Shown here piece after piece: positions 1,841 through 52,753 of a stretch of DNA of 64,000 bases; position 1 is the first letter of the stretch; each line of letters starts with the position of its first letter. The stretch lies in IMG/VR virus record IMGVR_UViG_3300032893_000026; one strand, 5' to 3'. The stretch comes from a virus. The translations under genes were made by a program, and so were the position numbers. The notes under the pieces were generated by a model, which searched no databases, was not told the origin of the DNA, and was given only the letters and a program-made list of their open reading frames with translations.

Positions 1841-1857
1841 GATTTAGACTCTAAATC
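1841..1857. promoter_or_regulatory. 17-bp palindromic operator-like site GATTTAGACTCTAAATC
   Basis: Perfect odd-length palindrome 43 bp upstream of the 1798 start; one of 15 copies in the genome. Confidence 0.8.
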
Positions 1858-2067
1858 CTGCCGCCGCCGGGTGCGCTTCCGGTGCCTCTCCCTATCTGCC
1901 ACTGGCCCTGCTTCCCGCCCCCCGGTCCTGAAGGAGCAACCAGGGGGCGGGAGAGAAGCCATCAGGTACGGGAGCGGGACCGGCCCGGCCTTCGCGGCAC
2001 TTCGGATGGCGTATCGCGCGATGCGTGCCGTCGGCCTGCCGACCAGCCTGCCGATCCACCCGGCTCT

Positions 2068-2670
2068 CTACTGCACGCCGCGTGCGTACAGCCCGTCGAG
2101 CAGGCACACCAGGGTGAGCCCGGTGCCTCCCGAGGCGGAGGCGGTGAGCGTGGCGGAGGTGCCGTTCAACTGGCCGTAGAACGTCATCTGGTTCTCGATG
2201 ACGATAGGGATCGCGAGTTTGTGCATGGACTCGCGCCCCGGCTTGCCGTTGCCGAGGATCGTGGTGGACGAGGTGGTGATCGCGGCGTAGATTCCGCCGC
2301 CCGCATTGTAGTACCAGAGCGGGCCACGCTGATACGGCTTCTGTCCGAGATAGAACTCGAAGCAGAACCCGTTCAGGATGGTGATCAGATCCGTCAGGTA
2401 GATGTCCTCCGAATAACGGATGCGGAAGCCGAAGATCGAGAAGGCCTCCGGGGCGGCCAGTTTCTGCGACTGGGTGAGGTTCGTCAGGGCCAGGGTCTTG
2501 CTGCTGGCCGGGCCCACGTTGGTGAACAGGGCCGTGGTCAACACCGTCACGGACGAGCCCGCGTTGAGGGCCACCGTGTCGTAGAGCGGGGTGTGCTGCA
2601 CGTCCATCCGATTGTTCACGTACACTTCGGAGTTGAACGCATCGACGATCATCTGTTGCTGCGGAGTCAT
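2068..2670 (-). CDS. Candidate major capsid protein, single jelly-roll-like (200 aa)
   Basis: RBS AGAGGA; beta-rich (LYDTV, TNL, PEAFSIFGFRI, IPIVIEN, LLDGLYAR); C-terminus parallels LDGVWRI of 429-1310; follows the Arg-rich core gene. Confidence 0.6.
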   Translation of the reverse strand: MTPQQQMIVDAFNSEVYVNNRMDVQHTPLYDTVALNAGSSVTVLTTALFTNVGPASSKTLALTNLTQSQKLAAPEAFSIFGFRIRYSEDIYLTDLITILNGFCFEFYLGQKPYQRGPLWYYNAGGGIYAAITTSSTTILGNGKPGRESMHKLAIPIVIENQMTFYGQLNGTSATLTASASGGTGLTLVCLLDGLYARGVQ

Positions 2671-2814
2671 TAATTTTTCCTCTGCTGAAGCTGGTTGACC
2701 TACGTTGAATTCGAGGGGCCCGGATCACTTACCCGGGCCCCAGGTCCTAGCAAGGTGTCCAGCACCGGCATCGAGTCCCGGGTCATCCCCGGAACCCCGC
2801 TAAGACGCCGGGCG

Positions 2815-3696
2815 CTAGAAAGCGGTGCCGAAGGCCCGCGCGAGTCCGTTCATGGTGACACGGGCGTTGGTCGGCGTGGCAGGAGCCGGAGCCGGGATGG
2901 CGGCGCGGATCGGGTTCTGCGGAACCACGAACTGGCCGGGCATCAGGTCGCCGAGCCCAATCGGCACTCCCCCGACGGTGAAGCCGGGCAGGAAGGCGTT
3001 CAGGGCCACGGAGGCCACCTGCATGAGGCCGCCGAACATGACGCCGTTGCCGAACTCGGGATCGAGCTTTCCGGCGCCCCAACCGGACGCCACCGCAGCC
3101 ACGGCGGAGATGATCACGCGTCCAAACGTGGTGGAGCCGAACGATCCGGTGATCGAGGTGGGGATGAGGGTGGGGATGAACTTCGTCGCCGCCACGCCCA
3201 CCAGACCACCGCCGATCAGCTTGAGGCTGTCCTTGGAGGTGAACGGGTGTCCGAGCAAGCCCGGATTCCGGCGGCGGTGACTCACGCGCCTCCGGGGGTT
3301 CTTCGCGTAATGACGGCGGCGGTTCCTCCGCTTGGGTGCCACGAACACCACGCGGGTGGCGTTGCGTCGGCGGCGGCGGGCGTAGCGGCGCGGGTTGCGG
3401 GCAACCCGGCGGCGGCGCACGTTCTTCACTTTGCGTCTGCGTCTTACCATGGTGCTTCTCCTTATGGGATTGAGGGACCCGAGTGTCACCACCAGGGCCG
3501 GGTTGGTTCTGCGGGTTCTCCTTCGGCGTGTTTTGCGCGACACCTGGACCTTTCTCCGCTTGGGATTCGTCTTGCGACGTCGGAGGGCGGCCTTCTGCCG
3601 GGCAGTTCCGAAGAACTTGATTTGTTTTGCGGTCATCCGCCTCCGCTTCCGGTGGCGGGAATTAGCCAGCCGCTTGACTTTGGTTGTGACTGCCAT
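2815..3696 (-). CDS. Arg-rich DNA-condensing core protein with C-terminal hydrophobic helices
   Basis: About 145 N-terminal residues dominated by R/K with repeated NP motifs; then GG/A-rich hydrophobic segments; AAGGAG RBS at 3696 and again at an internal ATG (3450). Confidence 0.7.
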   Translation of the reverse strand: MAVTTKVKRLANSRHRKRRRMTAKQIKFFGTARQKAALRRRKTNPKRRKVQVSRKTRRRRTRRTNPALVVTLGSLNPIRRSTMVRRRRKVKNVRRRRVARNPRRYARRRRRNATRVVFVAPKRRNRRRHYAKNPRRRVSHRRRNPGLLGHPFTSKDSLKLIGGGLVGVAATKFIPTLIPTSITGSFGSTTFGRVIISAVAAVASGWGAGKLDPEFGNGVMFGGLMQVASVALNAFLPGFTVGGVPIGLGDLMPGQFVVPQNPIRAAIPAPAPATPTNARVTMNGLARAFGTAF

Positions 3697-3729
3697 CGTG
3701 ACTCCTTTGACTCAGGCCTCCTTAGGCCA

Positions 3730-4068
3730 CTAGGCCGCCAGGGAACAGGGCCGTTGCAGGACCACGATATAAGTCCCGGCGGAACCGGCCACGTTGCCTT
3801 TGCTGAAAGTGACGATATTGGAGTTCGTCAGTACAGCCGCGATGGTGCATACGGCTGTTCCCACCACGTTGGGGGTGATCGTGACGAGCGGGAAGTTGAA
3901 GGCCAACTGCGCCGTCGAGAGCCCCCAGTTGTGGGTCATCACAAAGCTGGTGTCGGTGTCCGCTCCGATTGCCACAGTAGCCGTGATGGTATTGCACTTC
4001 TTTGCCTGTGCGGCAGTGGGAGGCGTAACACCGGCCACCGGGTAAGCGTAAGTGACTGTGACTGCCAT
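3730..4068 (-). CDS. Small beta-rich virion protein (112 aa), possible capsid decoration
   Basis: T/V/A-rich beta pattern with THNWG motif; RBS AAGGAG; lies in the capsid operon. Confidence 0.45.
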   Translation of the reverse strand: MAVTVTYAYPVAGVTPPTAAQAKKCNTITATVAIGADTDTSFVMTHNWGLSTAQLAFNFPLVTITPNVVGTAVCTIAAVLTNSNIVTFSKGNVAGSAGTYIVVLQRPCSLAA

Positions 4069-4097
4069 TTCTTTCTCCTTTCCTTAGCCCTGTGGGG

Positions 4098-4853
4098 CTA
4101 CTGTCTTGCTTCGACTACATCCGTTGCATTCTGGTCCTCCTCCCCCTTGCAAGGGAGGTGGGCCACGGATCTCATGCCGGGCGCGACGGCCCGGACCTTA
4201 AGGTGCACGATCTCCAACCGGGGATCGACCTTGATTACCGCGCCCCCGTCCTTGGCGCGGTAACAGAAACTGATGTCCTCTCCCAAGAAGCCCATCTCTG
4301 TCCTCCCGTCCACAATCGGGCGGAAGGGCCTGTCGCCAGCCATGCGTCCGATCCGGCTGCGCATGAGCACGGCGGGGAACCCGGTCCAGTCCACGGAGAT
4401 CGGGATCTGTCCCAGGAGAGCCGTCACCCGGATCGGCTTGCACCGGATGCCGTCTTCGGAGGAGCGGTATCCACAACTGGGAACGGCGTGGATATCGTAG
4501 CCATCCGGCTGGCAATAGCACCATGCCGACACCATGTCGAGCATGGGATCGTCGAACATGTCGTTGAGCAGGATCTTGAACTGGTCGAAGGTGAGCAGGT
4601 TGTCATCGTCCATCCACAGGATGTAGTCCGCAACGACTCCGCCTTGCCCCTTCATGACCCCGTTCCAGATCGTGGACCTCGTCGCGTACACGTTGGACGA
4701 GTACCCGAGATAGAACTGCACGTTATAGGCGTAATCCGGGTCCATGATCAGTTGGGCCAGGAAAGTTGTCCAGTTACTCACCCACACATTCGGGAATTGC
4801 TCTCCCGGGATGCAGATGGCGAGATTCAATGGCTTCCGCTCGTTCTCACTCAT
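4098..4853 (-). CDS. GT-A (family 2-like) glycosyltransferase
   Basis: Likely start MSENERKP; LAICIPG N-terminal strand, WMDDD DxD motif, TGFPAVL and GEDISFC motifs. Confidence 0.8.
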   Translation of the reverse strand: MSENERKPLNLAICIPGEQFPNVWVSNWTTFLAQLIMDPDYAYNVQFYLGYSSNVYATRSTIWNGVMKGQGGVVADYILWMDDDNLLTFDQFKILLNDMFDDPMLDMVSAWCYCQPDGYDIHAVPSCGYRSSEDGIRCKPIRVTALLGQIPISVDWTGFPAVLMRSRIGRMAGDRPFRPIVDGRTEMGFLGEDISFCYRAKDGGAVIKVDPRLEIVHLKVRAVAPGMRSVAHLPCKGEEDQNATDVVEARQ

Positions 4854-5143
4854 ACGTCTTCCGCTCCTTCGCTTTGACTTGCTCCGCTCGTTCCGCTCGA
4901 TCTCCCCTTGCCGTAGTACTTCCGGTAGAGCCACCACCCCGCCCCCACGGCAAGCAGGAGGAGGATGACGGATTGCGACTGCGATTGCGATTGCGACTGG
5001 TTGGACTGGATCGGGATGCAGTCCCAGAACCCCGTGCTGGCGTCGAGCACCGCGTAGTAGCCCGCGCCGCACCCCGGGTCGACACCGATGCTCTCGGCGG
5101 TGACGCCACCGGCAGGCTGAGATACCAAGTCAGAGAGGTCCAT
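4850..5143 (-). CDS. Small single-pass membrane virion protein
   Basis: Cys pair, QSQSQS linker, hydrophobic VILLLLAVGAGWWLY segment followed by RKYYGKGR. Confidence 0.6.
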   Translation of the reverse strand: MDLSDLVSQPAGGVTAESIGVDPGCGAGYYAVLDASTGFWDCIPIQSNQSQSQSQSQSVILLLLAVGAGWWLYRKYYGKGRSSGTSGASQSEGAEDV

Positions 5144-5145
5144 AT

Positions 5146-6390
5146 CTAGTTCTCGATCCCCGGACTCACGCCGACGAGCGGCTGCTTGATGAAGTACTGC
5201 CCGCCCGTGATGTAGAGCTTCTGGTTCTGCGGCTCGTATTCGAGGTAAGGCCTCTCGCCCGTGTCCTCGCCCAAGTCGTGCTGATAGATGATCTCCTCGA
5301 AGTCATCGAACTTCTTCTTCGTCTTGTAAGCCAGATTCCAGTACCGCTTGTTGTTGGTGGGCTTCGCGCCGGGCTCCGGCTCACTGAATACGCCGAGCAC
5401 CATTCGGTCCTTCAGCCATTTCTTCTCGTCCATCTTGAGCGTCGCCAGATCCACCGACTGGTCGCCGCCCTCGATGTACAGTTGCCTGCCGTCCTCGCTC
5501 GAAGCCAGGAACGGAGGGTTCTTCTCGAAGTCGATTCGGACGCGGATCCTGGTTGGGGTGTCGACGTAGATCTCCGTCAGGGTGCCGAGAGCGGCCAGAT
5601 GCTCATGCTCGTGGTACTCCTCCTCGATCACCACCTCTTCCGTCGACGGAGCGCCGTGGAAGGACTCGTACAGATCGGCGGCGGCACCGGCAGGATTACG
5701 TTTGGCTCTGGGCTTGTAGTCCGAATAGAGGATGTAGTTCTGGCGCCCGGCCCGGTCTTCCTTGTATACACAGGTGGCCGCGTACCCCTTGGCCCGAATG
5801 CTTTGGACAAGCTGGTCCGCATACTGATCGTCTTCCGGGGTAACAGCAGGGAGCTTGAGACTGTATCTGTAACTCCTCCCCCTGAAGGAGAAGGATTTGG
5901 GATTCTTCTTCCAGTCCCACTTACTCCGCTTGTGGCCCCTGGCATACTTCTTTTCCATGGTGGCGCACACCGCTCCCGGATCATATTCCTTCCCTACTCC
6001 CGCCTCGCACCGCTCAAACCACCCTGGCCCCGACCCTGGCCGCGCACCCGAATGGTGCCCCGGATTTGCTTCCCCAAACATGCCCTGATACGGATTGCCC
6101 TTCGACTTACCGAATCCGTGGAGCTTGGCCCTGGCCGCCGCGTAGGCCTCCTCGCGCGTCTTGCCCCCCACTCCCATGGGCTCCCCGGTCTTGTTGAACC
6201 ACTCCCACCTGCCGTCCGACTGGGTGAGCCGGATCTCTTCCGTGCTTCCGTCATCCGTGGTATAGGTGGCCTTGTCCGGGTCCTGCTCGTCTGGAGTCGG
6301 GCCATCCGGGTTAGGCCTTCGTCCCCCGTGTCTCTCCAGCACGTCGAAGTAGGAGGTATCGTGCTGGCCCATCTCAAGGCTCGATGCCAT
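5146..6390 (-). CDS. NP-motif modular virion/core protein (414 aa)
   Basis: Five NP motifs, mostly in a basic context, separate distinct segments; a globular-looking C-terminal domain of about 185 aa starts at KRNPAGAAADLYESFHG. Confidence 0.55.
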   Translation of the reverse strand: MASSLEMGQHDTSYFDVLERHGGRRPNPDGPTPDEQDPDKATYTTDDGSTEEIRLTQSDGRWEWFNKTGEPMGVGGKTREEAYAAARAKLHGFGKSKGNPYQGMFGEANPGHHSGARPGSGPGWFERCEAGVGKEYDPGAVCATMEKKYARGHKRSKWDWKKNPKSFSFRGRSYRYSLKLPAVTPEDDQYADQLVQSIRAKGYAATCVYKEDRAGRQNYILYSDYKPRAKRNPAGAAADLYESFHGAPSTEEVVIEEEYHEHEHLAALGTLTEIYVDTPTRIRVRIDFEKNPPFLASSEDGRQLYIEGGDQSVDLATLKMDEKKWLKDRMVLGVFSEPEPGAKPTNNKRYWNLAYKTKKKFDDFEEIIYQHDLGEDTGERPYLEYEPQNQKLYITGGQYFIKQPLVGVSPGIEN

Positions 6391-6391
6391 G

Positions 6392-7948
6392 TTAGTTGCC
6401 CTCCTCCTTCTCAATGCGTGCGATGGCATTCTTGACCTTCTTCGCCCCGCCCGAGTGTGCGTCGAATGCAATCACAATACCCCTGGACCGCAGCCGGGCG
6501 TCATCGAGACACATGCCACACTTCTTGTGCCCCGGAGATCCCACGCACTGGATATTCTTGTCGATGGCCTCATTCGGGCATGGCTGAATCCACACGCCCG
6601 TCTCCTCGTCCTTGTAGAGTCCCTTCTGCTTGAAGTGATCCACAACCATGGCCGTGCCCCACCCCCGGCTCATGGCCTCCTTGGCATCCGCCGCCGTCTC
6701 GCACGAGGCGAGTACGGAGATCTTCGATCCCCACGAGGAGCGGGAGGTGTCGCGCCATGCGTGGGTATAAGCCCACACTTTCTCGCGCCATCCCTGGCAT
6801 GCATCCGCCAGCATCCGCACCGGTCCGTTGCCTACCGCGTCGCCGACCACATGCAGCCGGAGCGGGAGCCACTTACCCTTGCGCTCGTTGATCTCGATCT
6901 GGGTCTTGATGGCCTCCGCCTCCGCCCTGGCGCAGTCCTCCGCGTCCGCGCCCGAGGAGTTGGCCGCCCGATTGAGCCGGAGCCGGGTGATGTTAGTCGG
7001 CCCATACTCCGCATAACACCCATACCCTAAGAAGGGGCAGGGTCGCGACGAGTTCCCCTGGTTGGGGCACGAGGCGTTGCTCACATAGGTGGCCGAGGCC
7101 ATCCCCACCTTCGCGTTTGCACTGGACTCCGCGAGGGTGGCGAGGGATCCGGGCGCGGCGGAGGGATTGGGCATCGTCCTCTCTCCTGCGGCGGAGATGT
7201 GGGTGACGAGGTCGAATTTAGAATCTAAATCGTGATCCGGGTTGGACACATAGTGCCTCACCAGATGGGCGGGCAGGGTGACCATGTTGGTGGAGAGGGT
7301 GTCGTAGATATCCAGACCGGACTTGACCACGGACTTGGCGACCCTGGCGGCGCGGCGGGCATGGTGTTGGACGGAGGAGTTGTGCTTCTTGCGGCGGGTG
7401 GTGGCCCACTCGTCCAGAAATCTCTTGGCATCGTCGACGGTGTCGAATCGCGAGTAAGGATCGGAGGAGACGCGATAGTCTCCGGTAGGCGTGCGGAAGA
7501 TCTTCTTCCCGCGATATTCCATCACCGGGCCCTCATACTCCTTGCCCGTGCCCGAGGACTTGACTTTCGTACCGGTGCTGGCCCTGGTTGTTTGGGAGGG
7601 GGCCTGGGAAGATGGACTTCGCCCAGGAGCGGTCTGGGCGGCGGAAGACCCGGCCCCCGCATACCTCGACGCCGGGCGGCCAGCCAGCCGGTCATCGAAG
7701 CCTTGATCGTAAGCGGCACGCAGACGCTGGAGGACGGGCCTGCCGTGCGAGGCATACCCGTGGTCGCAGGCCCACTGGTCAAACAGGCCGGTGTCGGGAG
7801 ACTCGAATCCGGCGAGATAGGCCGAGTGGAGGGACTGGGGGAGTGCGCTCTTCGACTTGGCGGCACACTTCCGCGCTTCCTTCTTCCTCCCGAACCCGAG
7901 GAAGTTGGCCTTGCGCCGGATTATGACTCGCCGCTTCATGCCACTCAC
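6392..7948 (-). CDS. Basic NP-motif protein fused to a gp88/DUF7227-like Cys-rich domain
   Basis: C-terminal half: SCP..CPF..GCYA, LRLHVVGD, WAYTHAW, LASCET, CP..C..C.MC pattern. Family recognised by eye only. Confidence 0.55.
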   Translation of the reverse strand: MSGMKRRVIIRRKANFLGFGRKKEARKCAAKSKSALPQSLHSAYLAGFESPDTGLFDQWACDHGYASHGRPVLQRLRAAYDQGFDDRLAGRPASRYAGAGSSAAQTAPGRSPSSQAPSQTTRASTGTKVKSSGTGKEYEGPVMEYRGKKIFRTPTGDYRVSSDPYSRFDTVDDAKRFLDEWATTRRKKHNSSVQHHARRAARVAKSVVKSGLDIYDTLSTNMVTLPAHLVRHYVSNPDHDLDSKFDLVTHISAAGERTMPNPSAAPGSLATLAESSANAKVGMASATYVSNASCPNQGNSSRPCPFLGYGCYAEYGPTNITRLRLNRAANSSGADAEDCARAEAEAIKTQIEINERKGKWLPLRLHVVGDAVGNGPVRMLADACQGWREKVWAYTHAWRDTSRSSWGSKISVLASCETAADAKEAMSRGWGTAMVVDHFKQKGLYKDEETGVWIQPCPNEAIDKNIQCVGSPGHKKCGMCLDDARLRSRGIVIAFDAHSGGAKKVKNAIARIEKEEGN

Positions 7949-7963: not shown

Positions 7964-8001
7964 TGTTACTTACCTGTTACTTACCTGTTACTTACGTTAC
8001 C
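7964..8001. repeat. 11-bp tandem repeat (TGTTACTTACC) x3 plus partial
   Basis: Read directly; AT-rich, in the intergenic gap upstream of 6392-7948. Confidence 0.9.
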
Positions 8002-12582: not shown

Positions 12583-13434
12583 TTAGTTGTCCCCCATAAC
12601 CAGGACCAGGGCGATGGCCCCGAGTCCCAGGTAGGCCAGAGATTTAGAGTCTAAAGAAGTAGTGCCGCCGCTGGAGGCCGAGGTGGAAGTGGAGGTAGAG
12701 GCCGAAGTGGAGGTCGAGGTCCCGGAGTCGAGGGAGATATCGGCGGCCACCGTCTGGTCGTTGGCTACGATGTCGCGGTAGCCGTTGAACCAGTTCCAGC
12801 ACTGCCCGGGCTGAGGCTCACCGGGATAGGAGAGCAGGGGGGAGGTGGTGGTCTGAAGCCACTTGCAGGCCCCGGCCTGACGGTCCGCGATGCAGTTCTG
12901 TCCCGCCGTGCCGAGCCCCGCCTGACTGCACCTCTGCACCAGCCCCTGCCATGCCGCGTCGATGACTCCGAGCACGGCATTCTGCGCCGCCTGGGTGCGG
13001 GGAGCGGGGAGTGCGAAGTAGGCCTGGACGGCCTGCTTGATCGTGTCCTCGGCTTGGTTGGCCCATTCGGAAGTGACCACGCAAGTCTCGCCGCATCCCC
13101 TGCCGAGCAGGACGGTGATGGCAAGCATGGCCCCCGCGATGATGGGGCCGATGAAGGGCACGATGCCGGAGGCCGCGATGGCCGCGCCAAGTCCCGTGGT
13201 GGCTCCGGCGGCGGTGGCGGAGGCGGCCAGGGCACCGGCCACGGCGCCTGCGGAAGAGAGGGTAGCGCCCGCGATGGCGGAGGCCTGCTTCTCGGCGGGG
13301 CTCATATCACCCAATCCGGCAAGCCCGAGCCCGAGGCAAGGAAGACAACCCACCCCACTGCCGGTGCGGTAGCGCACGGGGCTACGCATGACTGCATATC
13401 CGTGGGCCGCGCGGTATGGGGTGAGTTGGCGCAT
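12583..13434 (-). CDS. Membrane virion protein (283 aa) with GLAGLG leader motif and Cys-rich domain
   Basis: Basic leader ending GLAGLG-D, Ala/Gly-rich hydrophobic hairpin, six further Cys, S/T linker, C-terminal TM. Confidence 0.65.
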   Translation of the reverse strand: MRQLTPYRAAHGYAVMRSPVRYRTGSGVGCLPCLGLGLAGLGDMSPAEKQASAIAGATLSSAGAVAGALAASATAAGATTGLGAAIAASGIVPFIGPIIAGAMLAITVLLGRGCGETCVVTSEWANQAEDTIKQAVQAYFALPAPRTQAAQNAVLGVIDAAWQGLVQRCSQAGLGTAGQNCIADRQAGACKWLQTTTSPLLSYPGEPQPGQCWNWFNGYRDIVANDQTVAADISLDSGTSTSTSASTSTSTSASSGGTTSLDSKSLAYLGLGAIALVLVMGDN

Positions 13435-16391: not shown

Positions 16392-16724
16392 CCGGCGCAC
16401 CTCATATAAGGAAGGCCGGGACGGGGATCGGCGGGACCGGCGGGGAGGATCTCCACCGGGCAACAACGAGGACTAGCGAGGCCACTGGTTGGCAATCCGG
16501 CTTGCCCCGGCCCGGCCCCCAGGTGACTCGCCCGAGCACCTGGAGCTTGGGATCTCAGCACGGGCCCCACCATAACGCCATGCCGTTTGCCGCGCCATAC
16601 ACGGTGTTGTGGAAGCCCATTAAGTATTACCGGCGGAGCGCATCGATCCCCGGGCAGGAGGCCGAGTGCGGGTACAATCGCCATATCAGGACACATTCCA
16701 AACGTGGAACAGGAGGCAATTATC

Positions 16725-19247
16725 GTGGCAAGCAACAGATACAACAGGCCCACCAAACTACCAAAATCGACCACTCACGAGATGCTGGACCTCAACCAGT
16801 CGGTCTATCCCGAGGATTCGCCCGCTTCGCCCTCTCCTCCCGTGGCCGTGGCCGATCCCACGCCGTCCAATGCCGGGATCCAGGGAGTGGAGGCGGCGGC
16901 CCCCATGCCTGAGCCGGGCGGTGATCCGGAAGGTGAGCCGGAACAGGACCCGGAGGATCCAGTAAGGCCTATACGGGCCCCAGATCCAGGCCCCGGACCT
17001 CACCCGGACAAAGACAGGGAGCCAGGACCGGCTACAGGCCCGATCCCTGTGGCGCAGAGCCCGGCCAGAGCCTCCCAGGCCAGGGGGGAGGTGGTATCAG
17101 ACCCCCCGGCGCCCCGAGAGCCTGTAGGGCCAGCCACGGGGCCTGCTGCAGGGCCTGCTACAGGGCTTGATACGAGGCCGGGAGCGGGGTACTCCAAGCC
17201 CCGTCCCGGGGCAGGCCTGGACACCCCTACAGTCAGGGCGGAGGCCCGCCATAGGGGCGAGGTGACCGGGCCTGGGGCCAGGGAGCGCAGGCAGGAGCCA
17301 AAACAGAGCCCGAGGACGGAAACGCCTCAGCCGGGCATGACCGACATCGGCTCTCCCTTCCCCACGCCGAAGCAGTTTGACCTCTCGCCCGAAGACTTCT
17401 TCACGTACTGGAGAGATCTCCGTCCGAGCGACCAGGACCGGGTGATGGTGTACGCCTACCGGTTGTGGCCGGTGTGCGACGTGTTGCAAAATCTCCCGCC
17501 GGAGGAGATCGAGGCCATCGCGCGGAAGGAGAAGCCCAAGCCCCCGGTCAACATCGCCAAGTTCGTCTCGCCGTGGGGCACCGCCCAAACCTACCGGCAG
17601 GACATCCTGCACCGCTTCGGGAGCGGGGATTACAATTTCAGGCTGAACGACACCTCCGCGCCCCTGCCGAGCGGCAAGCGGGGGAGCCGCACCGTCTGCA
17701 TGACCACGGTGAGCGGGCTGCGCGACTTCGATCATTACCCTCCCGTACTGGACGTGAGCGAACTGGTGGTGGCAGACCCCGCCAACCAGAGTTACGTGCG
17801 GTGGAGGCAACTCAAGGGTCTTAAGACGCCCGGCGCGGAGAGTGACCGGATGGAAGGAGATGACGAAATGGCGGGAGCCGAGGCAGTCAAAGCACTCACG
17901 GGCACCGTGGCATCGCTCACGGAGAAGCTCACCAACCAGAAGATGGATCCCAACATGGCCGCGACGGGCCGCGCGGCGGAGGTGGTGGCCGATGCCGCCA
18001 AGCAAGGACAGCAGATTATTGCGGAGGCAATGCGGGTGGCGCGGGAGACTGCCGCCGCCAGCCAGAACCCCCACGCCTATCACGAGGACATCATGAACGC
18101 AGCCAAAACTCTCACCCCGCCTCCTCCGCCGCCCGGATCCTCCATCGGGGTCGCCGAGATCCTGGGCATCTTCCAGACCTTCATCGCGTCGCAACAGACC
18201 CAGTTCTCCTCGATGCTCTCGCTCGTTCAGGAGAACGCACGCACACAAATGGAGGAGATGCGGACGCGTCTCAAAATCACCGAAGAGCGGCTCACTGCGG
18301 CCCTCACTCCCAAAACTGAATCCAACTCCGGCAACTCCGGATCCTCCACCAGCAACCCGAAGCCGAAGGGATTGCTGGAACAGTTGAAGGAGATGAAAGA
18401 GGTGGTGGACATGTTTGGGGGCCTGAACGAGGCCTCCGAGAAATCCGGCATGCCGGGGTGGGTGCCGATTGCGGCCCAGGCGGCCCAGGGAGTCCTGGGC
18501 AACTTGGCTACGCTCGTCTACAACATGAAGCTCCAACCGGGCCAAGCGCCCATGGCTCCCATGCCTCCTGCCCAGGTGGGCGAGACGGAGGAGTTGGAAC
18601 CCGAGCCGGGGCAGGAAGAGGAGACGGAAATGGGAATGGTACTGAATCTGGTGAAACAGCTAGAAGCCCCCCTGTTGAACGCCTTGCAGCAGGGCAAGAC
18701 GGGCTATCAATTCGGCGCGGAGTTCCTGTTGCAGCAGGGAGACATGGCGTACTCATGGATGTGCGAACAGGGATCCGACAAACTGCTTACCTACCTGCAA
18801 CTGCACCCGCCGCTCTGGGCTCAGTTGATCCGCATCCCGGACCGCTTCGCGCAGTTCCTCAACCAGTTCCTGGAGAGGGACAAGGTGCTCTCCCTGGCGC
18901 AGAGGATGCGCATGGCGGCCTCCGGTGTCCGCGTCCCCCAGCCCATTCACCAATCCGCCCAGGCTCCCCCACCTCCGGCCAGACCCATGACCCAGGCTCA
19001 CCCGGCTTACCCGCCCCCGCCTCAAGCCCCATCCCCGGCTCCAGCCCCCACCCCAGCCCCCACTCCAGCCCCCACTCCCGTCTCCGGCTCCAACACCACC
19101 GTCATCCGCCCCGAGGTGCAGACCGTGATCATGGACCCGGCGCAACGGATGGGCCCGGGCCGGGGGGTGTCCAGACCGAAGGTTGTGACGGTGGAGGGTG
19201 TGGAGAGCACGGAGGGAACGGCTCAAGGAGGAGAGCCCGCCAAATAA
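16725..19247 (+). CDS. Large Pro-rich/helical protein of unknown function (about 840 aa)
   Basis: GTG start with AGGAGG RBS; P-rich termini, central HRFGSGDYNFRL domain, long predicted helices; own terminator. Confidence 0.7.
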   Translation: MASNRYNRPTKLPKSTTHEMLDLNQSVYPEDSPASPSPPVAVADPTPSNAGIQGVEAAAPMPEPGGDPEGEPEQDPEDPVRPIRAPDPGPGPHPDKDREPGPATGPIPVAQSPARASQARGEVVSDPPAPREPVGPATGPAAGPATGLDTRPGAGYSKPRPGAGLDTPTVRAEARHRGEVTGPGARERRQEPKQSPRTETPQPGMTDIGSPFPTPKQFDLSPEDFFTYWRDLRPSDQDRVMVYAYRLWPVCDVLQNLPPEEIEAIARKEKPKPPVNIAKFVSPWGTAQTYRQDILHRFGSGDYNFRLNDTSAPLPSGKRGSRTVCMTTVSGLRDFDHYPPVLDVSELVVADPANQSYVRWRQLKGLKTPGAESDRMEGDDEMAGAEAVKALTGTVASLTEKLTNQKMDPNMAATGRAAEVVADAAKQGQQIIAEAMRVARETAAASQNPHAYHEDIMNAAKTLTPPPPPPGSSIGVAEILGIFQTFIASQQTQFSSMLSLVQENARTQMEEMRTRLKITEERLTAALTPKTESNSGNSGSSTSNPKPKGLLEQLKEMKEVVDMFGGLNEASEKSGMPGWVPIAAQAAQGVLGNLATLVYNMKLQPGQAPMAPMPPAQVGETEELEPEPGQEEETEMGMVLNLVKQLEAPLLNALQQGKTGYQFGAEFLLQQGDMAYSWMCEQGSDKLLTYLQLHPPLWAQLIRIPDRFAQFLNQFLERDKVLSLAQRMRMAASGVRVPQPIHQSAQAPPPPARPMTQAHPAYPPPPQAPSPAPAPTPAPTPAPTPVSGSNTTVIRPEVQTVIMDPAQRMGPGRGVSRPKVVTVEGVESTEGTAQGGEPAK

Positions 19248-19262
19248 TTTAGAATCTAAAAG
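19246..19262. promoter_or_regulatory. Palindromic site copy (1 mismatch)
   Basis: AATTTAGAATCTAAAAG overlapping the stop codon of 16725-19247. Confidence 0.65.
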
Positions 19263-23646: not shown

Positions 23647-23663
23647 AATTTAGAGTCTAAATC
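23647..23663. promoter_or_regulatory. Palindromic site copy
   Basis: AATTTAGAGTCTAAATC; supplies the stop of 23657-23935 and lies 16 bp upstream of the next start. Confidence 0.75.
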
Positions 23664-27027: not shown

Positions 27028-27044
27028 GATTTAGAGTCTAAATC
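27028..27044. promoter_or_regulatory. Palindromic site copy (perfect)
   Basis: GATTTAGAGTCTAAATC, intergenic, 58 bp upstream of the DUF932 start. Confidence 0.8.
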
Positions 27045-30287: not shown

Positions 30288-30304
30288 AATTTAGACTCTA
30301 AATC
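30288..30304. promoter_or_regulatory. Palindromic site copy
   Basis: AATTTAGACTCTAAATC, intergenic. Confidence 0.75.
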
Positions 30305-31022: not shown

Positions 31023-32403
31023 CGTCCGAGCTACTGTCTACAGGCACGTCGAGCCTGACTGCGTTCTGCATCACGTACCTCACCTCGTGTCCGAAGTCCT
31101 CCGCCAGATCGTCCTGCACCTCGAAGATCAACTCATCGTGTATCTGTAACAGGGGTAACACGAGATACTGCTGCGACTGGTAGTAAGTCACCAGATTGTA
31201 CACCTCCCCCATAACCAGCTTGATCACACCTTGGGCCGAGGCCTGGATCGGCATATTCCCCGCCTCCCTCAGCCCCTCGTTGACCTTGGCCGGGATGACT
31301 GACCTTACTTCGGGGATAAGTCTGGTCCTGCCAAACATATCCCACACCATCTCTTCCGCCTTGGCCCTCCGGTACTGCTCCTCCATCCAGTCCCGGATCC
31401 CGGGATAGGCGTCGAACCAAGCGTCAATGTACTTCTGGCACTCCTCCTCGCTCAGTTCCGGCCCGCCTTCGGCCATGATGTTGGCCCTCAGTCCCGGGGC
31501 GGTAAGCCCATACAACACACCGAATCCCAAGTTCTTGGCCGGGGCCCGCTGATTCTGCTTGAAGTTCTTCCACTCAGCCGCTTCCTCGGGAGTTAGCGTC
31601 TTGGACTCGTTCTTCTGCGCGAGATAGTTGATCCTCTCTATGGACAGCTTGAACAGGGCGCAGGCCGTGCGGTTGTGGATGTCGAGCCCCTGGATGAAGA
31701 TCTGCTGCATGGCCTGATCGCCACTCAGGTGGGCGGCTATCCGCATCTCGATCTGGCTGAGATCGCCTCCTACCAGCTTGGTGCCTCTTGAACCGACGAA
31801 GGCATTCCTGATCAGCTTGCCGTAGTCCCCCCTTATCGGGATGTTCTGCAAGTTGGGCAAGCCCTGCTTCCTGTCCCCCGAGCTAAGTCTCCCCGTGGTA
31901 GTGCGGGTGGCCTTGAATACCGTCCTCAGCCTTCCGTCCGCTCCCACCAGCAGGGGCAGGGGGCCGGTGTAAGTACTTCTCAACTTGGTGATCTCGCGGA
32001 AGTCCTGGATGCTCTTGATGACGGGGTGGAGGTTGACCATCGAGGCCAGCACTTCGTCTTCCGTGGTGTATCTCCCGCTCTTGAGTTTCCTCGGATCCCC
32101 CGGCGGCTTGAGTTCCATCCGTTCAAACAACAGATTGGCGACCTGATCCGGCGACCCCGGGCTGAATCCGGGGTATATGTCGTTCGTCCACAACCGGATC
32201 TCGTCGACTATCTCCGCCTCGCGGACGGAGAATTTAGAGTCTAAATCCAGGAGGTAGGGGACATCGATCCGGATGCCGTGCCGGTGCATCTGCGCGATCA
32301 TGGGCCACGCCATGCGGTCCAGCCTCGCGACGTTGGAGAGGGAGGGGCTGTCGACGAGCCGCACTCCCCCGAAGCATTTCTGGCCTACCCAATGAGGAAC
32401 CAT
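30994..32403 (-). CDS. polA: Family A DNA polymerase, polymerase domain only
   Basis: TGRLSS, PNLQNIP, motif A DLSQIEMR, motif B RAPAKNLGFGVLYG, motif C QIHDEL; own GGAGG RBS before ATG 32403; no exonuclease motifs. Confidence 0.92.
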   Translation of the reverse strand: MVPHWVGQKCFGGVRLVDSPSLSNVARLDRMAWPMIAQMHRHGIRIDVPYLLDLDSKFSVREAEIVDEIRLWTNDIYPGFSPGSPDQVANLLFERMELKPPGDPRKLKSGRYTTEDEVLASMVNLHPVIKSIQDFREITKLRSTYTGPLPLLVGADGRLRTVFKATRTTTGRLSSGDRKQGLPNLQNIPIRGDYGKLIRNAFVGSRGTKLVGGDLSQIEMRIAAHLSGDQAMQQIFIQGLDIHNRTACALFKLSIERINYLAQKNESKTLTPEEAAEWKNFKQNQRAPAKNLGFGVLYGLTAPGLRANIMAEGGPELSEEECQKYIDAWFDAYPGIRDWMEEQYRRAKAEEMVWDMFGRTRLIPEVRSVIPAKVNEGLREAGNMPIQASAQGVIKLVMGEVYNLVTYYQSQQYLVLPLLQIHDELIFEVQDDLAEDFGHEVRYVMQNAVRLDVPVDSSSDVAEKWGEMK

Positions 32404-35705: not shown

Positions 35706-35708
35706 AAC

Positions 35709-36122: not shown

Positions 36123-36256
36123 TAGGCGCCTGGGCCTTCCCGGACTCCCAGGACTACTCCCAGGCTCACCCAGGCCTCTCCGGCCTCCTGGCGGGCCTGG
36201 GAGCGGCCTCAGAACCGATCCTGGCGAGGCTTTAGACCCTGAATCTCCGGACTGCC

Positions 36257-38337: not shown

Positions 38338-39150
38338 TCAGTCCGATTTAGACTCTAAATCATCACCGGCATCCCAGTCCGTCTGGGAGTCGAGGTCCTT
38401 CTCTCCGTGGATCCAGTTCAGGATTTTCCTCGCCGTCTTGGGGCCCACGCCGGGAAGAGACTGCCAGTCTTCGGAGGTGGACATGGCGATCATGTCGAAG
38501 GGAGATCGCCACTTCATCTGGCAGGCGAGAGACTTCTCGACGCCGATGCCGGGCAGTTCCCGCGCGACGGATCGAACCGGGTTCTCGCGGGATTGCAGGG
38601 GGATCACGTTCCATGGGTCGAAGTACATCGTCCTCAGGGATTTGTGATCTTTCCACTCGCGTTGGTGGTAGGAGTGGAGGGAAATGATGTTGCGGACGGT
38701 GTTGGCCTCGCCGGTAGTGCGGCGCACACGGACAGGAGTCCACTCAAGACTACACAAGAAATGATCGAAGTGCTCCCACATGAAACGCTGGCGCCCGAGC
38801 GTGACCTCGCGCCACCAGATGCGCTTGTGGTCCTTGGCGTCCTCGCACGCCTCCTCCAGCATCCCCGTCCAGGGATTGGCCCGGCACAGGCCCTCCACGA
38901 TCAGGTAACTGCGGTCGTAGAGATCCAGCATGCGGGGTATCTGCACGTCCACCAACCGGCCCGACTGCATGGACTGGAGGAGGTCGCGGATCGTCTTGCG
39001 CTCGACCCCCAGGCGCGAGGGGCCTTTGGGGGTGTTGCCGTCGAAGGCGAAGTCCCCGGCCTCCAACTGGCCCAGGGTGTACTTGGCCCCGATCTGCTCG
39101 AAGAGCGGGGCCAATTCCTTCGATCCCGTGCGGCTGTCAATCACGATCAT
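38338..39150 (-). CDS. ERCC4/XPF-family nuclease with HhH motifs
   Basis: IDSR, GDF, VERKT..DL..S...GRL, LIVEG; PGIG and LPGVGPKTA HhH; ends in a palindrome copy (38345-38361). Confidence 0.85.
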   Translation of the reverse strand: MIVIDSRTGSKELAPLFEQIGAKYTLGQLEAGDFAFDGNTPKGPSRLGVERKTIRDLLQSMQSGRLVDVQIPRMLDLYDRSYLIVEGLCRANPWTGMLEEACEDAKDHKRIWWREVTLGRQRFMWEHFDHFLCSLEWTPVRVRRTTGEANTVRNIISLHSYHQREWKDHKSLRTMYFDPWNVIPLQSRENPVRSVARELPGIGVEKSLACQMKWRSPFDMIAMSTSEDWQSLPGVGPKTARKILNWIHGEKDLDSQTDWDAGDDLESKSD

Positions 39151-43571: not shown

Positions 43572-43692
43572 AGGAATTTACACTCTAAATTGGCCGGGCC
43601 CCCTCGCCCTTGCCCCTTGCTGTACGGGAGCAGGAGAGGACCCGGCCTGGGGGGTGGGGGACTGGACTACCCCAGACCCCCGAATCGGGTGG

Positions 43693-46420: not shown

Positions 46421-46437
46421 GCTTTAGAGTCTAAATT
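46421..46437. promoter_or_regulatory. Palindromic site copy (1 mismatch)
   Basis: GCTTTAGAGTCTAAATT; forms the stop of 46431-47048 and lies 35 bp upstream of the helicase start. Confidence 0.65.
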
Positions 46438-49603: not shown

Positions 49604-50083
49604 TCACTCCCCCGTGTAGCTCAAACGAGTGCTACCGGGGCGTGGAGGATCGTCCGGTCCTGTTGCCTGTGATTCCGGCTGCGATTCCGCCTCGTCTTCA
49701 AACTCGGCATCGATCTCGATACCGAGGTCGACGCCGAAGCCATCAGGGAACGGGATGCCATGATTCCCGGCGTACATCACAAAATCCCGCGCCGCCTCTC
49801 CGGTGAGTGTCCGCTTGCCATATTTGAAGGATATGGTGTACCCATCGTTGTCTTTCCGAATGGAAGTGCGCTCCGCACCCTCGAACAGCTTCCAGAGATT
49901 GACGATCTCGATCTCCGTGGGCGAGGCCGTTATAACCGAAAATCCGGAGCGTACCGGACCGGCAAACTTCAACTCCATGACCGGAGTTTGCGGAGGCGGC
50001 GGAGGCTCCAGTATTTCGTTTATCAGTGCGGACCACGCTTCGATCAGTTTGGCCCGCGTTTCCGGTTTCAAGTTCATGAACAT
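49604..50083 (-). CDS. Hypothetical protein
   Basis: GGAGG RBS; shares SQPESQATG with the upstream gene. Confidence 0.5.
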   Translation of the reverse strand: MFMNLKPETRAKLIEAWSALINEILEPPPPPQTPVMELKFAGPVRSGFSVITASPTEIEIVNLWKLFEGAERTSIRKDNDGYTISFKYGKRTLTGEAARDFVMYAGNHGIPFPDGFGVDLGIEIDAEFEDEAESQPESQATGPDDPPRPGSTRLSYTGE

Positions 50084-50153
50084 TCGTCGAATTCCTCCCT
50101 TTGGTCAACGTCTTTTGTATCCACACCTGTTGCTTGTGATTCCGGCTGCGATT
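49659..50153. repeat. 28-bp direct repeat (1 mismatch)
   Basis: CCTGTTGC(C/T)TGTGATTCCGGCTGCGATT at 49659-49686 and 50126-50153. Confidence 0.85.
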
Positions 50154-51249
50154 TAGAGTCTGAATTCTCATTCAGCTTTTCGAGGATCAGGCGGCAGTAA
50201 TCCATGATCTGGGAGAGGTATCTGAGGCCTATCGGGGCCTCCTCCATACGGGCTATCAACTGCGCAGTGCCATGCATCAGGAGCACGTAGAGCAGTTCCA
50301 ACTCGGAGGGGACGGGGAAGGGAAAGTCGGGCAAGCCCATCGGGGCGTGGGAAACCTCCGGGGGATCCGGCTCCGGCGCACTTGCTGGCTCTGGCCACAA
50401 CCCGACAGGCTGGCCGTGCTCCTGGGAGTAAGGCTGGCGCGGATTGAACTCCTCCTCGTCGAAAAGGCCGGAGGGGGTGTTGTAGCCAAGGAAGCCCACC
50501 ACCAGATTCTGGAGCAAGGCGTCCGGGTCGAGGTCCACCTCGGTGCCATTCATCGTGGCGCACCGGAGCGCATACTTCCCGGCGGCGCGGAGGGCTTCGG
50601 ACCACCACTGGCGCCCGGGGTGGTTGGTGCCCTGGAGGAGCGGGATCGGCGGGACGTTTTGGCCGGGCTGGGTAAGCCAATGACTCTTCGGCAGGGGGAA
50701 GGAGGCGGTAATGAAGCCCGAGTCATCCGGCAGGACCACCGGTCCGTCGACCACCTCGCCGCCGAGGTCGTGGATCAGATTCCTGACAGCCTCCTCCACC
50801 GGCAGAGCGTGGACGGCGGAAATGCCTTCAGACTGCCGCCGCCCGGAACTGTCCGTGCTCTCCCCGCCCGCGCTCTTCTCGTCTGTGCTCTTCTCGTCCG
50901 TGCGTTCCCCCTGCATGCGCTCCTCACGCATATGCTCCCCGTCTTCGCGCATGGTGATGCCGGGCTGCTTCATGAGATGGTTGTAACCGACAAAGAAGTC
51001 GCTGAACCCGGCTATGACTCCTATGAGCGCCTGTATCTGCTCCTGGGTGCAGCGGTCCTCCTCGCACAGGGACAGGTACTTGTGGAGCAGGGGCAGGGCC
51101 AGCCGGTCCCTGGCGCGGAGCAGGAAAAGCGGCTCCCAGTCGGGGATGGCAACCCCGGTTGCTGTCTTGACAATTTCCGGCCGTTCCTCTCCGTCGAGGC
51201 GTTCGCGGACCTCGATGTGGTACTTGGCGTCGATCCTGCGTCTGAGCAT
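50074..51249 (-). CDS. Multi-module hypothetical protein (391 aa)
   Basis: EPLFLLRARD module and ATMNG..DLDPDALLQNL module joined by low-complexity linkers. Confidence 0.55.
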   Translation of the reverse strand: MLRRRIDAKYHIEVRERLDGEERPEIVKTATGVAIPDWEPLFLLRARDRLALPLLHKYLSLCEEDRCTQEQIQALIGVIAGFSDFFVGYNHLMKQPGITMREDGEHMREERMQGERTDEKSTDEKSAGGESTDSSGRRQSEGISAVHALPVEEAVRNLIHDLGGEVVDGPVVLPDDSGFITASFPLPKSHWLTQPGQNVPPIPLLQGTNHPGRQWWSEALRAAGKYALRCATMNGTEVDLDPDALLQNLVVGFLGYNTPSGLFDEEEFNPRQPYSQEHGQPVGLWPEPASAPEPDPPEVSHAPMGLPDFPFPVPSELELLYVLLMHGTAQLIARMEEAPIGLRYLSQIMDYCRLILEKLNENSDSKSQPESQATGVDTKDVDQREEFDECS

Positions 51250-51491: not shown

Positions 51492-51529
51492 TGGTCTTAG
51501 GGGCTGGTCTTAGGGGCTGGTCTTAGGGG
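51492..51529. repeat. 13-bp-period tandem repeat TGGTCTTAGGGG(C) x3
   Basis: Read directly, inside the 51250-51831 noncoding gap. Confidence 0.9.
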
Positions 51530-51717
51530 TAGGGGTAAGGATCGAGTCGGAGGCCCCCTGGGTCAGGAGAGGGCCTCCATACTCTGTGCCCTGGCAACTC
51601 CATTGTCGGGCACCTGCCCCAGGCCCAAGGAAGGAAGCCTGGGGTTTCGCGAGTAGAACCATGGTAGATCCCAGGCTGTCGGGGAGATGTCGAATCGGGC
51701 AAGCCTGAATTGATTGA

Positions 51718-51758
51718 GTGTGGCCGGGCACCGCCTCAAAAGGGGCACCCGGCCACAC
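51718..51758. terminator. Hairpin at the end of the virion operon
   Basis: 11-bp perfect stem GTGTGGCCGGG/CCCGGCCACAC; no clear U-tract. Confidence 0.45.
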
Positions 51759-51831
51759 CGGACAAGCAGCCCAGAAAGGAATCTTTGTGGTGCTGCGGAC
51801 TGGACACACTGATGATAACCAGTTGACGGCG

Positions 51832-52497
51832 TTAGGTCAACGCATAGATGAGGAGCAGGACTCCACCGGCCAGAGCGAGTATCTCGGGTGTGCCGATAGT
51901 ACCCTCGCCGCCGTCATCGTCGGAATTATCTGTGCCTTGTGCCACACTACTGGCTGGTAGTGTGTCACCGGAAGTATCACCTCCGGCGCCTCCGGATCCA
52001 CTTCCAGCACTACCCCCGGTACTTTGGTCCCCTGTGCTTTGTCCGGTACTGTCTGTATTGCCTGATACCAGATCGCTCAGCGGGGTGTTGGGATCGATGC
52101 CCAATTGGCTGGCTACGAAGGCCGCGTACTGGTTGGGGTTGTTGGAGTCGGCCTGGGGCGCATAGCCGGGGTAGACGCCCGGCTTGCCCGCGAAGAACTC
52201 TTCGAGCGTGAGGCCCTTATTGATGTTGAGTTGGATCTGATTGTCGAGCGCCGCCCACCCCGTAGCCAGATCGGGAAAGACGGCGTACCCGCCGCTCGTC
52301 CCCGTCTGCCCCACGCCCGCTCTCAGATTCCCGGGGTTGTTGTTGCGGACGGCGATGGACGATGCCCCGGAAGTGAAGCCCTCGAATTGGGCTATCGACT
52401 GGGCCATGTCCGTCACCAGGGTCGAGTACCCCAGGCCCAAGCCCCCGAGTCCGGGCCTGCCCCACCTGTATCGGGATGGAATCCTTCCGGTCAACAT
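51832..52497 (-). CDS. Lysozyme-like virion protein (RNNNPGN family) with C-terminal TM
   Basis: IAQFEG, RNNNPGNLR, YAVFPD..TG..A, YAP..DSNNP..Y; GLGGLG leader; S/T/G linker; TM. Confidence 0.75.
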   Translation of the reverse strand: MLTGRIPSRYRWGRPGLGGLGLGYSTLVTDMAQSIAQFEGFTSGASSIAVRNNNPGNLRAGVGQTGTSGGYAVFPDLATGWAALDNQIQLNINKGLTLEEFFAGKPGVYPGYAPQADSNNPNQYAAFVASQLGIDPNTPLSDLVSGNTDSTGQSTGDQSTGGSAGSGSGGAGGDTSGDTLPASSVAQGTDNSDDDGGEGTIGTPEILALAGGVLLLIYALT

Positions 52498-52501
52498 AGG
52501 A

Positions 52502-52720
52502 TTAGGTGGCCCACGGGTTGAACCTGACCATTCTGTCGAGAGCGTCTCTCCTCTGCTTGCACCCGCCGCAGGGCTCTATCCCGAGGGCCCTGGTGAATCT
52601 CTCGATTGCGCTCCCCGCCCCTATCGCGCTATGCAGGCCCGGCACCGGAATGGCAAACCTGGGATCCTGCCCCTGGCTCTGGGCTTGTTGGGCTTGCCCG
52701 GAATTCAAGTCGATTTGCAT
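52502..52720 (-). CDS. Small CGGC-motif protein
   Basis: T.ALGIEPCGGCKQRR..L pattern; start lies within a palindrome variant (52712-52728). Confidence 0.55.
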   Translation of the reverse strand: MQIDLNSGQAQQAQSQGQDPRFAIPVPGLHSAIGAGSAIERFTRALGIEPCGGCKQRRDALDRMVRFNPWAT

Positions 52721-52753
52721 TCTAAATCCTCCCTCTCCCGCCTCAGTCTTATT

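Follow-up and report, generated by a model that had tools for sequence, protein, structure and literature searches.

What reads a palindrome that recurs around an entire viral genome? The stretch of DNA analysed here, 64,000 nucleotides of the IMG/VR virus record IMGVR_UViG_3300032893_000026 (hereafter the window), carries 15 copies of a short AT-rich palindrome, and a preliminary description had offered three answers: a genome-wide repressor or roadblock network resembling stoperators, a parS-like array for an orphan ParB protein, or a condensation or packaging signal that substitutes for a motor. We find that the palindromes, 15 and perhaps 16 in number, are probably the cognate sites of the orphan ParB-family protein encoded at 20416-21315 on the minus strand, and would then be a viral equivalent of parS, of the Noc-binding sites (NBS) and, above all, of OB, the operator of KorB. 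ParB is favoured as the reader because protein and palindrome match in their presence and absence among relatives, because a site lies downstream of each parB gene, and because a helix of the protein co-varies with the site. These lines of sequence evidence all favour the second of the three answers.

The last part of the window (57842-64000) is identical to positions 1-6159, a wrap-around of a unit that constitutes a 57,841-bp genome, circular or circularly permuted, with a measured GC content of 61.7% over the whole unit. Its palindrome has the consensus (R)ATTTAGA-N-TCTAAAT(Y). In the coordinates of the 15-bp form, which starts one base after the 17-bp form used previously, nine unique copies are perfect (1842, 7216, 23648, 27029, 30289, 32232, 33604, 33631 and 38346), five have one mismatch (12642, 19247, 43576, 46422 and 50151) and one has two (52713), so that all 15 copies first noticed were recovered at their positions. 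The exact 15-mer ATTTAGANTCTAAAT has 10 matches, against none in 100 dinucleotide shuffles; when up to two mismatches are allowed there are 16, against a shuffle mean of 0.05. The match at 59683 is the wrap-around duplicate of 1842 and was dropped from the unique count. Base composition predicts 1.3e-5 perfect cores per genome, close to the earlier rough figure of about 1e-5, for which the GC content had been estimated by eye at about 63%. A symmetrised weight matrix adds the R and Y flanks at -1 and +1, giving the 17-bp form, and scores the 15 sites at 22.7-32.4 bits. Two lesser copies had been called degenerate or half copies: the one at 36229 proved to be a weak site with three mismatches (16.6 bits), and that at 47171 is a half-site only. 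All 29 of the 29 TTTAGA/TCTAAA hexamers in the genome, tallied against the site sequences, belong to full, weak or half sites. The central base may be C, G, T or A, the arms are near-perfectly symmetric, and the sites have no fixed orientation; beyond the R/Y flanks, no conserved element adjoins the window sites. They are the chief AT-rich islands of this 62% GC genome.

With the tandem pair (27 bp) merged, the gaps between sites measure 1.37-6.97 kb, as the earlier estimate of 1.4-7 kb had it, and the spacing is more even than random placement would give (coefficient of variation 0.39, p ~3e-4; largest gap, p ~1e-3). Eleven of the 15 sites are intergenic or at most 15 bp from a gene end, though 83% of positions lie deeper in genes (p = 3e-6). 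The minus strand holds 83 of the 87 genes according to coding-potential gene calls, which are heuristic throughout. At least eight sites lie 4-60 bp upstream of a minus-strand start and one overlaps a start, where the earlier count had been six at 4-58 bp and one overlap; measured in the direction of transcription, the site-to-start distance runs from start-codon overlap up to 67 bp upstream. The in-gene copies all read in the single open frame that had been pointed out, L-D/E-S-K (S-D-S-K at the variant 50151), and this reading extends to the PolA polymerase gene and to the C-terminal tail of an ERCC4 nuclease. Scans of the whole genome for sigma-70 promoters and intrinsic terminators revealed neither enrichment nor coincidence with the sites.

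The candidate reader is a protein of 299 amino acids of the ParB/Noc/KorB family, with an N-terminal CTPase-type fold (GFRR and ENxxR motifs), a helix-turn-helix (HTH) and a helical C-terminal domain. It matches PHROG ParB-like families at E = 4e-17. A profile of its subfamily searched against the Protein Data Bank finds Spo0J at 5.6e-32, Noc at 2e-31, ParB proteins within 1e-32 to 1e-28, and KorB at 7e-11. The best Foldseek matches of its AlphaFold2 model, which has a mean predicted local distance difference test score (pLDDT) of 86, are Noc (7nfu), KorB (8qa9) and ParB (6t1f), each with probability 1.00. GFRRALAA and VENLHRKEL of the window ParB align to GERRwrA and ENLqReeL of Noc/ParB; within the subfamily, G73, R76 and R121 are invariant, and R75 and N118 are conserved in at least 90% of members. 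The Glu of the GERR motif is replaced in the window protein. KorB likewise has no such Glu (GARRYR), yet it hydrolyses CTP (PMC11790492).

Modelling supports dimerisation of the ParB C-terminal domain: residues 222-299 gave a homodimer prediction of 0.44, against 0.00 for the best of three controls, and this mark is reached by 21 of 30 proteins solved as one-chain pairs and by none of 23 solved as single chains. At least 88% of contacts recur between runs, with a partner pLDDT of 67 or more. The closest homologue, P0080, is 59% identical. A word-based search gave 3 matches, and the subfamily, with its characteristic C-terminal domain, was defined by exhaustive profile search. Among the components of a ParABS system, the window has the palindrome by parB and is without the ParA ATPase, there being no deviant Walker-A frame (KGGxGK[ST]) in the genome. 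Equally absent is the ParA-stimulating N-terminal motif, defined as (L/F/I)G(K/R)G(L/F/I) (PMC12704722), which occurs in 0 of 20 members of the ParB subfamily. No clamp-locking partner of the KorA/TrbA type was recognised in the window. The N-terminus of the window ParB is disordered in the model, and neither model nor sequence reading gave evidence of a Noc-like amphipathic helix there.

If ParB reads the palindrome, the two should travel together. Relatives of the virus were gathered via the capsid protein family, and whole genomes were then assembled or fetched. Two of them, the viral contigs G001 and G002, are complete and bear direct terminal repeats; their virion module is as in the window, with capsid-module proteins 31-69% identical, and they differ greatly from it in the early and replication regions. 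V3 is more distantly related, with a capsid protein 31% identical to that of the window, and G003 and G004 are two further complete viral genomes that encode the ParB subfamily. The motif TTTMGA-N-TCKAAA occurs 12 times in the window, 7 times in V3 and 5 times each in G003 and G004, against shuffle means of at most 0.03, and a search with the subfamily hidden Markov model (hmmsearch) finds ParB in the same four genomes. G001 and G002 have no copy of the motif, and neither contains a ParB detectable by the subfamily model at E<=10, in agreement with Pfam ParB_N. Relatives without palindromes, which the preliminary description had named as evidence against its view, were thus found only where ParB too is missing, and they do not refute the ParB reading.

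V3 is informative because of how little else it shares with the window. It replicates via a primase-helicase rather than PolA, and outside the virion module it has only four window proteins: the ParB-like protein, a phrog_6247 protein, a small serine recombinase and a 72-amino-acid protein. With the replication module entirely different, ParB is therefore among the very few non-virion proteins that the two viruses have in common. The two ParBs are 28-29% identical over their full length, the HTH segment being best conserved. The 13-bp core recurs in V3 at 7-11 dispersed positions, mostly just upstream of starts. The five sites of G003 (5498, 33313, 42297, 48084 and 55743) are all hybrids of one TTTAGA and one TTTCGA arm, and none is symmetric.

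The position of one site is constant. A palindrome lies downstream of the parB stop in all nine lineages or contigs examined, the classical layout of parB and parS. In the window, V3, G003, G004 and V5, the ParB operon converges with the one large gene of the opposite strand, there being one such junction per genome, and a site marks that junction in each (19247 in the window, 25478 in V3, 42297 in G003, 20666 in G004, and likewise in V5); the position of site 19247 is thus conserved across all of them. In V5 the downstream palindrome directly follows an intrinsic terminator. Among shorter contigs, L061 has two tandem sites 10 bp past the parB stop, in L062 the site overlaps that stop, L063/L064 have their palindrome 10 bp past it, and the sites of L090 and L091 follow at about 50 bp and at 91 bp, respectively.

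The palindromes found in this position change with the protein. A ParB recognition helix of the form SE..(T/S)Q(T/S)LKL accompanies TTTAGA arms in the window, V3 and L061, and SEPLISRSLKL accompanies a combination of TTTAGA and TTTCGA arms in L062 and G004. The ParB of V5, 42% identical to that of the window, has the helix SVSWISMTMKL and the palindrome TTTCAGA-N-TCTGAAA. In L063/L064 the ParB is 44% identical, the helix is DKSWVSKTLRL and the palindrome is GTTTCCA-A-TGGAAAC, whose half-site is close to those of parS (TGTTTCAC-GTGAAACA) and NBS (TATTTCCC-GGGAAATA). V5 and the short contigs are incomplete; in the 30 kb of V5 available, its palindrome is dispersed in 4 copies. V5 has no palindrome of the window type, and the V5 type is absent from the six other genomes compared. 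The question raised earlier, whether relatives carry their own dispersed palindrome co-varying with one HTH protein, is answered in part: V5 has one that pairs with its ParB helix, and L063/L064 have a palindrome of their own past parB that does likewise. It is false that every relative does so, since G001 has none and G002 an asymmetric motif instead.

This motif of G002, about 30 bp long (GGGAT-AAACCGCCGTTCAC-CAG...AAGGTTTCC), is dispersed in 13 copies, nearly all in one orientation, for example at 17527, 21861, 25319, 27492, 36550, 38471 and 40533, frequently with another repeated motif, GC-rich, some 40 bp away. Rather than a palindrome, the 30-bp motif resembles a promoter or intergenic cassette in repeated form. 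G001 has, at about 40195-40315, six perfect tandem 20-bp repeats of a unit that includes ATTGTGGGACGCGG; they are iteron-like and may mark a replication origin. Probing of viral contigs with the window helicase gave no match, and scans of such contigs with A4, P0089 and P0083 found nothing.

Within the window, the sites can be followed through the genome. Site 1842..1856 (perfect), which falls between genes and precedes by about 43 bp the start of a capsid-module gene for 149 amino acids (1349-1798, minus strand, as are all genes below unless marked plus), has a syntenic counterpart in V3. Site 7216..7230 (perfect) lies in the DUF7227 gene 6392-7939, where it is read D-L-D-S-K-F, about 42 bp upstream of an internal ribosome-binding site and ATG. 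That strong ribosome-binding site, GGAGAGAGG, and the ATG at the start of the DUF7227 domain fall at 7170-7190, which suggests that the gene has an internal start or yields two products from one frame, and site 7216 may thus also precede a start. Site 12642..12656 (one mismatch) occupies the 3' end of 12583-13305, and the next start follows about 60 bp further on, at 12581. The junction site 19247..19261 (one mismatch) abuts the stop of 16704-19247 (plus), the only large plus-strand gene, where this converges with the ParB operon, and site 23648..23662 (perfect) heads the gene string that ends with ParB, overlapping the stop of 23657-23935, with the phrog_6247 gene 22672-23631 starting 16 bp downstream. 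Two perfect sites follow in intergenic positions, 27029..27043 (58 bp upstream of the DUF932 gene 25849-26970) and 30289..30303 (26 bp upstream of 29963-30262).

Site 32232..32246 (perfect) lies inside the PolA polymerase-domain gene 30994-32403 and is again read D-L-D-S-K-F. The tandem pair, 33604-33618 and 33631-33645, both perfect and 27 bp apart centre to centre, is intergenic, 59-86 bp upstream of 33194-33544. The family A polymerase is itself split: a gene for uracil-DNA glycosylase and 3'-5' exonuclease domains (36257-37750) stands 3.9 kb from the polymerase-domain gene, and the pair 33604/33631 and site 32232 fall between or inside the two. The weak candidate for a sixteenth site, 36230..36244 (three mismatches, 16.6 bits), lies in the convergent gap between 35745-36122 (plus) and 36257-37750. 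Site 38346..38360 (perfect) supplies the codons for L-E-S-K, the C-terminal tail encoded by the ERCC4/HhH nuclease gene 38338-39150, and lies 13 bp upstream of an ATG. Three one-mismatch sites come next: 43576..43590, which the start of the DUF4031 gene 43251-43571 follows after 4 bp; 46422..46436, overlapping the stop of 46431-47048, 35 bp upstream of the helicase gene 44617-46386; and 50151..50165, in the 3'-terminal part of 50074-51249, with the start of 49604-50083 lying 67 bp downstream. The last, 52713..52727 (two mismatches), overlaps the start codon of the gene for the 72-amino-acid protein (52502-52720).

Several observations weigh against ParB as the reader, or against parts of that reading. 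The V3 genome, a circle of 56,127 bp, is a composite of overlapping loci from near-identical contigs of two samples. The phyletic support is thin, since the independent lineages are few: the clade of V3, G003 and G004, the window itself, V5 and some short contigs. In G003 and G004 the sites number just 5 apiece and are unevenly spaced, so that coverage of the whole genome may be peculiar to the window and V3. The site nearest to parB in the window is 1.17 kb downstream, beyond two small genes. In place of the third Arg of GERRxR the window ParB has a Leu, which makes its CTP chemistry uncertain. No sigma-70-like promoter coincides with the sites, and the AT-rich divergent control region 35453-35744 carries none, so that a direct role in repression is unsupported. 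Finally, ParB does not stand alone in its pattern of presence and absence, which is also that of the small serine recombinase (Resolvase domain; 47192-47923, minus strand) and of the 72-amino-acid protein (52502-52720, minus strand): both occur in the window, V3, G003 and G004 and in neither of the ParB-less relatives. The recombinase is likely a plasmid-type stability partner, acting in multimer resolution, and not the reader of the sites. For the 72-amino-acid protein, in which a GIxPCxxC...R...L motif is conserved, either partnership with the ParB system or mere linkage to it is conceivable.

Could one of these or some other protein, or the host, read the sites instead? If the palindromes were recombination or resolution sites of the serine recombinase, its match with the palindrome in the six genomes compared and the closeness of some palindromes to its gene would be explained. 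Crossover sites of serine resolvases and invertases are, however, about 26-30 bp long, with 12-13-bp half-sites and an even centre of 2 bp, unlike palindromes of 13-17 bp with a single central base. Fifteen active copies would scramble or delete the genome, and placement relative to the recombinase gene varies among genomes, whereas placement downstream of parB is constant; we regard this explanation as extremely improbable. A different dimeric regulator, with ParB unrelated, could use the sites as an operator or roadblock network in the manner of the phiC31 repressor inverted repeats or the cluster A stoperators. Most sites do lie just upstream of starts, and candidates are at hand: an XRE-type protein (34758-35135) with weak matches to HTH_31/HTH_3, a proposed winged-HTH protein (32796-33197), a proposed ribbon-helix-helix protein (46431-47048), or an unrecognised member of the many small early proteins without family assignment. 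The three named proteins, previously put forward as binders, have no homologue in the palindrome-bearing V3, G003 and G004. The divergent control region beside the XRE gene has no site, and on short contigs without such a regulator the palindrome past parB still shifts with the ParB helix. A stoperator-like mechanism in particular does not fit, because the sites are symmetric and not transcription-oriented; stoperators of cluster A are asymmetric, transcription-oriented and bound by the immunity repressor, as summarised in PMC4351075. Another regulator is thus an unlikely reader, and the idea of a genome-wide repressor network is compatible with ParB as the reader, as a KorB-like output of its binding.

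A signal for condensation, membrane tethering or packaging that replaces a packaging ATPase, with or without ParB as adaptor, draws on the lack of a Walker-A ATPase in the virion module, on the even spacing, as whole-genome coverage would give, and on the ability of the ParB relative Noc to tether DNA to the membrane (PMC8429893). Yet the window ParB, with its disordered N-terminus in the model, shows no evident amphipathic helix like that of Noc, and in G001 and G002, which share the virion module, palindrome and ParB are both missing, so that packaging in this family does not require them. Given these ParB-less relatives with their matching virion genes, a signal obligatory for packaging is unlikely; the proposal as a whole strikes us as very unlikely. 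The host might read the sites as a promoter core, an UP-like AT island or a site for a nucleoid protein, or they might form a weak RNA hairpin near the ribosome-binding site. They are the main AT-rich islands of the genome and close to starts, and to our eye TTTAGA and CTAAAT loosely resemble -35 and -10 hexamers. On the other hand, they are without a conserved flanking promoter element or a sigma-70-type match, and their distance to the start codon varies from overlap to 67 bp. An arm of 7 bp with a loop of 1 nucleotide cannot fold so in RNA, and a shortened AU-rich hairpin would be weak. A host element, moreover, would not co-vary with a viral ParB helix, and ParB-less relatives are without the palindrome. 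Reading by the host or in RNA is accordingly highly improbable.

Other candidates were rejected outright. The sites are too long for restriction or homing targets, and are over-represented, not avoided; they are dispersed, not clustered as iterons or a replication origin would be. The phrog_6247 protein (22672-23631, minus strand), which matches that 'DNA topoisomerase' family at E = 5e-107 without belonging to a Pfam family and has homologues in V3 and V5, was dismissed as reader, being absent from the palindrome-bearing G003 and G004. The proteins on either side of parB, 21423-21833 and 20037-20399, were set aside since both have homologues in the palindrome-less G001. Some phage ParBs without a DNA-binding domain activate thymine dioxygenases; such a role does not fit the window ParB, with its HTH, nor was a dioxygenase seen among the window proteins scanned.

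Among known systems, the closest counterpart of the pair formed by the window ParB and its palindrome is KorB of the IncP plasmid RK2 with its 13-bp operator OB, TTTAGC-S-GCTAAA. The outer TTT...AAA arms are common to OB, parS, NBS and the window site, and the single central base is common to the window site and OB, which shares the TTTAG arms and differs from the window core at one position per arm. RK2 has 12 OB sites on a replicon of about 60 kb, many copies dispersed near and far from promoters, and dispersal over the replicon holds here too, with 15 sites in 57.8 kb and dispersed sites in V3, G003, G004 and V5. The Glu of GERR is replaced in both proteins (GARRYR in KorB, GFRR in the window), and 8qa9 is among the best fold matches. 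The sequence of the window ParB is nevertheless closer to chromosomal ParB/Noc (E 1e-32 against 7e-11), and the window has no IncC/ParA and no recognisable partner of the KorA/TrbA type. Its replicon is a virus with a jelly-roll-type capsid rather than a conjugative plasmid, and repression by its ParB is putative.

Noc of Bacillus subtilis, whose structure 7nfu is the best match of the window ParB, is likewise an orphan ParB paralogue without ParA, with many scattered palindromes and outer ATTT...AAAT arms. The NBS centre, in contrast, is even and that of the window site odd, the window ParB has no evident membrane-targeting helix, and a role in cell-division control is irrelevant to a virus. 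The plasmid-prophage partition systems P1 ParB-parS and N15 SopB provide the precedent of a phage-borne ParB-type protein with a site downstream of its gene; N15 has several separate palindromic sites, IR1-4, and spreading of SopB silences nearby promoters (PMC7205306). Both systems differ from the window, which has 15 sites and neither ParA nor a ParA-binding motif, in possessing a ParA/SopA ATPase and only 1-4 sites. Cluster O mycobacteriophages (Corndog) have a 17-bp repeat with 7-bp inverted arms in more than 30 copies genome-wide, many of them intergenic and some in genes, for which a dimeric binder was predicted, and these phages encode the ParB-like gp90 (PMC4351075). The likeness lies in a dispersed 17-bp palindrome together with a ParB-like domain protein in one genome. 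The cluster O sequence is different (TGTTCGG-NNN-CCGAACA, with a 3-bp centre), the phages are tailed, and no link to the ParB-like protein was proposed there. Cluster A stoperators resemble the window sites as dispersed copies of one protein-binding site with a proposed function in genome-wide silencing of transcription; the window sites differ in being symmetric and in co-varying with a ParB-family protein.

By analogy with ParB, Noc and KorB, we infer direct binding of the sites, dependence on CTP, sliding, and an output in regulation or maintenance. A ParB dimer joined by its C-terminal domain would set its two HTH domains on the two TTTAGA half-sites; site binding together with CTP would close the N-terminal gate, and the clamp would slide to flanking DNA. 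Since the sites are at most about 7 kb apart, and most lie just upstream of starts, the whole 58-kb genome and every gene in it would be within clamp reach. The output is most likely KorB-like silencing or tuning of operons genome-wide plus stable maintenance of a circular episome, for which the co-travelling resolvase would resolve multimers, as on plasmids. It is rather unlikely that the clamps instead coat the whole viral chromosome as a physical device, which might tether or compact the genome for the virion, in a family without a recognisable packaging ATPase, or shield the small circular episome from SMC-type defences with which the host scans DNA.

A megablast search with 44 kb of the window gave no match among 50,697 phage records, and PHROG or Pfam families could be assigned to few of the virion proteins, most being without one. 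About 78 relatives of the capsid-module protein 429-1310 (minus strand, 293 amino acids) occur in metagenomes, several of them on contigs 50-68 kb long, and judging from sample names the family is found mainly in soil and peat metagenomes. The model of this protein is all-beta (pLDDT 83), and its best Foldseek matches are double jelly-roll capsid proteins, those of an iridovirus, PBCV-1, PRD1 (P3) and STIV, at E of about 1e-4 and probability 0.9-0.99, with low TM-scores. The virus therefore probably belongs to an uncultured, non-tailed family with a double-jelly-roll-like capsid protein. No signal of a terminase, portal or FtsK/HerA-type packaging ATPase was seen in the window genome; the only clear Walker-A proteins, an AAA_24 protein (41206-42090) and the helicase (44617-46386), both belong to the replication region. 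Three perfect tandem repeats, 51492-51529 (13 bp x 2.9), 29433-29470 (12 bp x 3.2) and 7964-7995 (11 bp x 2.9), sit in intergenic gaps of 582, 407 and 61 bp without a palindrome and are candidate origins or other protein-binding arrays.

In conclusion, our analysis pairs one ParB subfamily with one palindrome. Phages and mobile elements commonly carry orphan ParB-fold proteins, many of which are listed in a 2025 survey with no sites or roles assigned (PMC12704722); our literature search turned up no description of a ParB site array spanning a virus genome. The data suggest a new setting for a KorB/Noc-like system, a virus family with jelly-roll capsids, together with a natural specificity series. 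The 17-bp repeats of cluster O mycobacteriophages are worth revisiting, as the same pairing of ParB and palindrome may apply. If ParB clamps do coat the viral chromosome, this would be a new viral use of the CTP-clamp principle. If ParB binds the palindrome as we propose, genome-wide clamps of the KorB/Noc type would reach beyond plasmids and chromosomes to non-tailed viruses, and the series TTTAGA, TTTCGA, TTTCAGA and GTTTCCA would serve the study of how ParB recognition evolves. The palindrome itself would then be a sequence marker that predicts which viruses of the family persist as regulated episomes.

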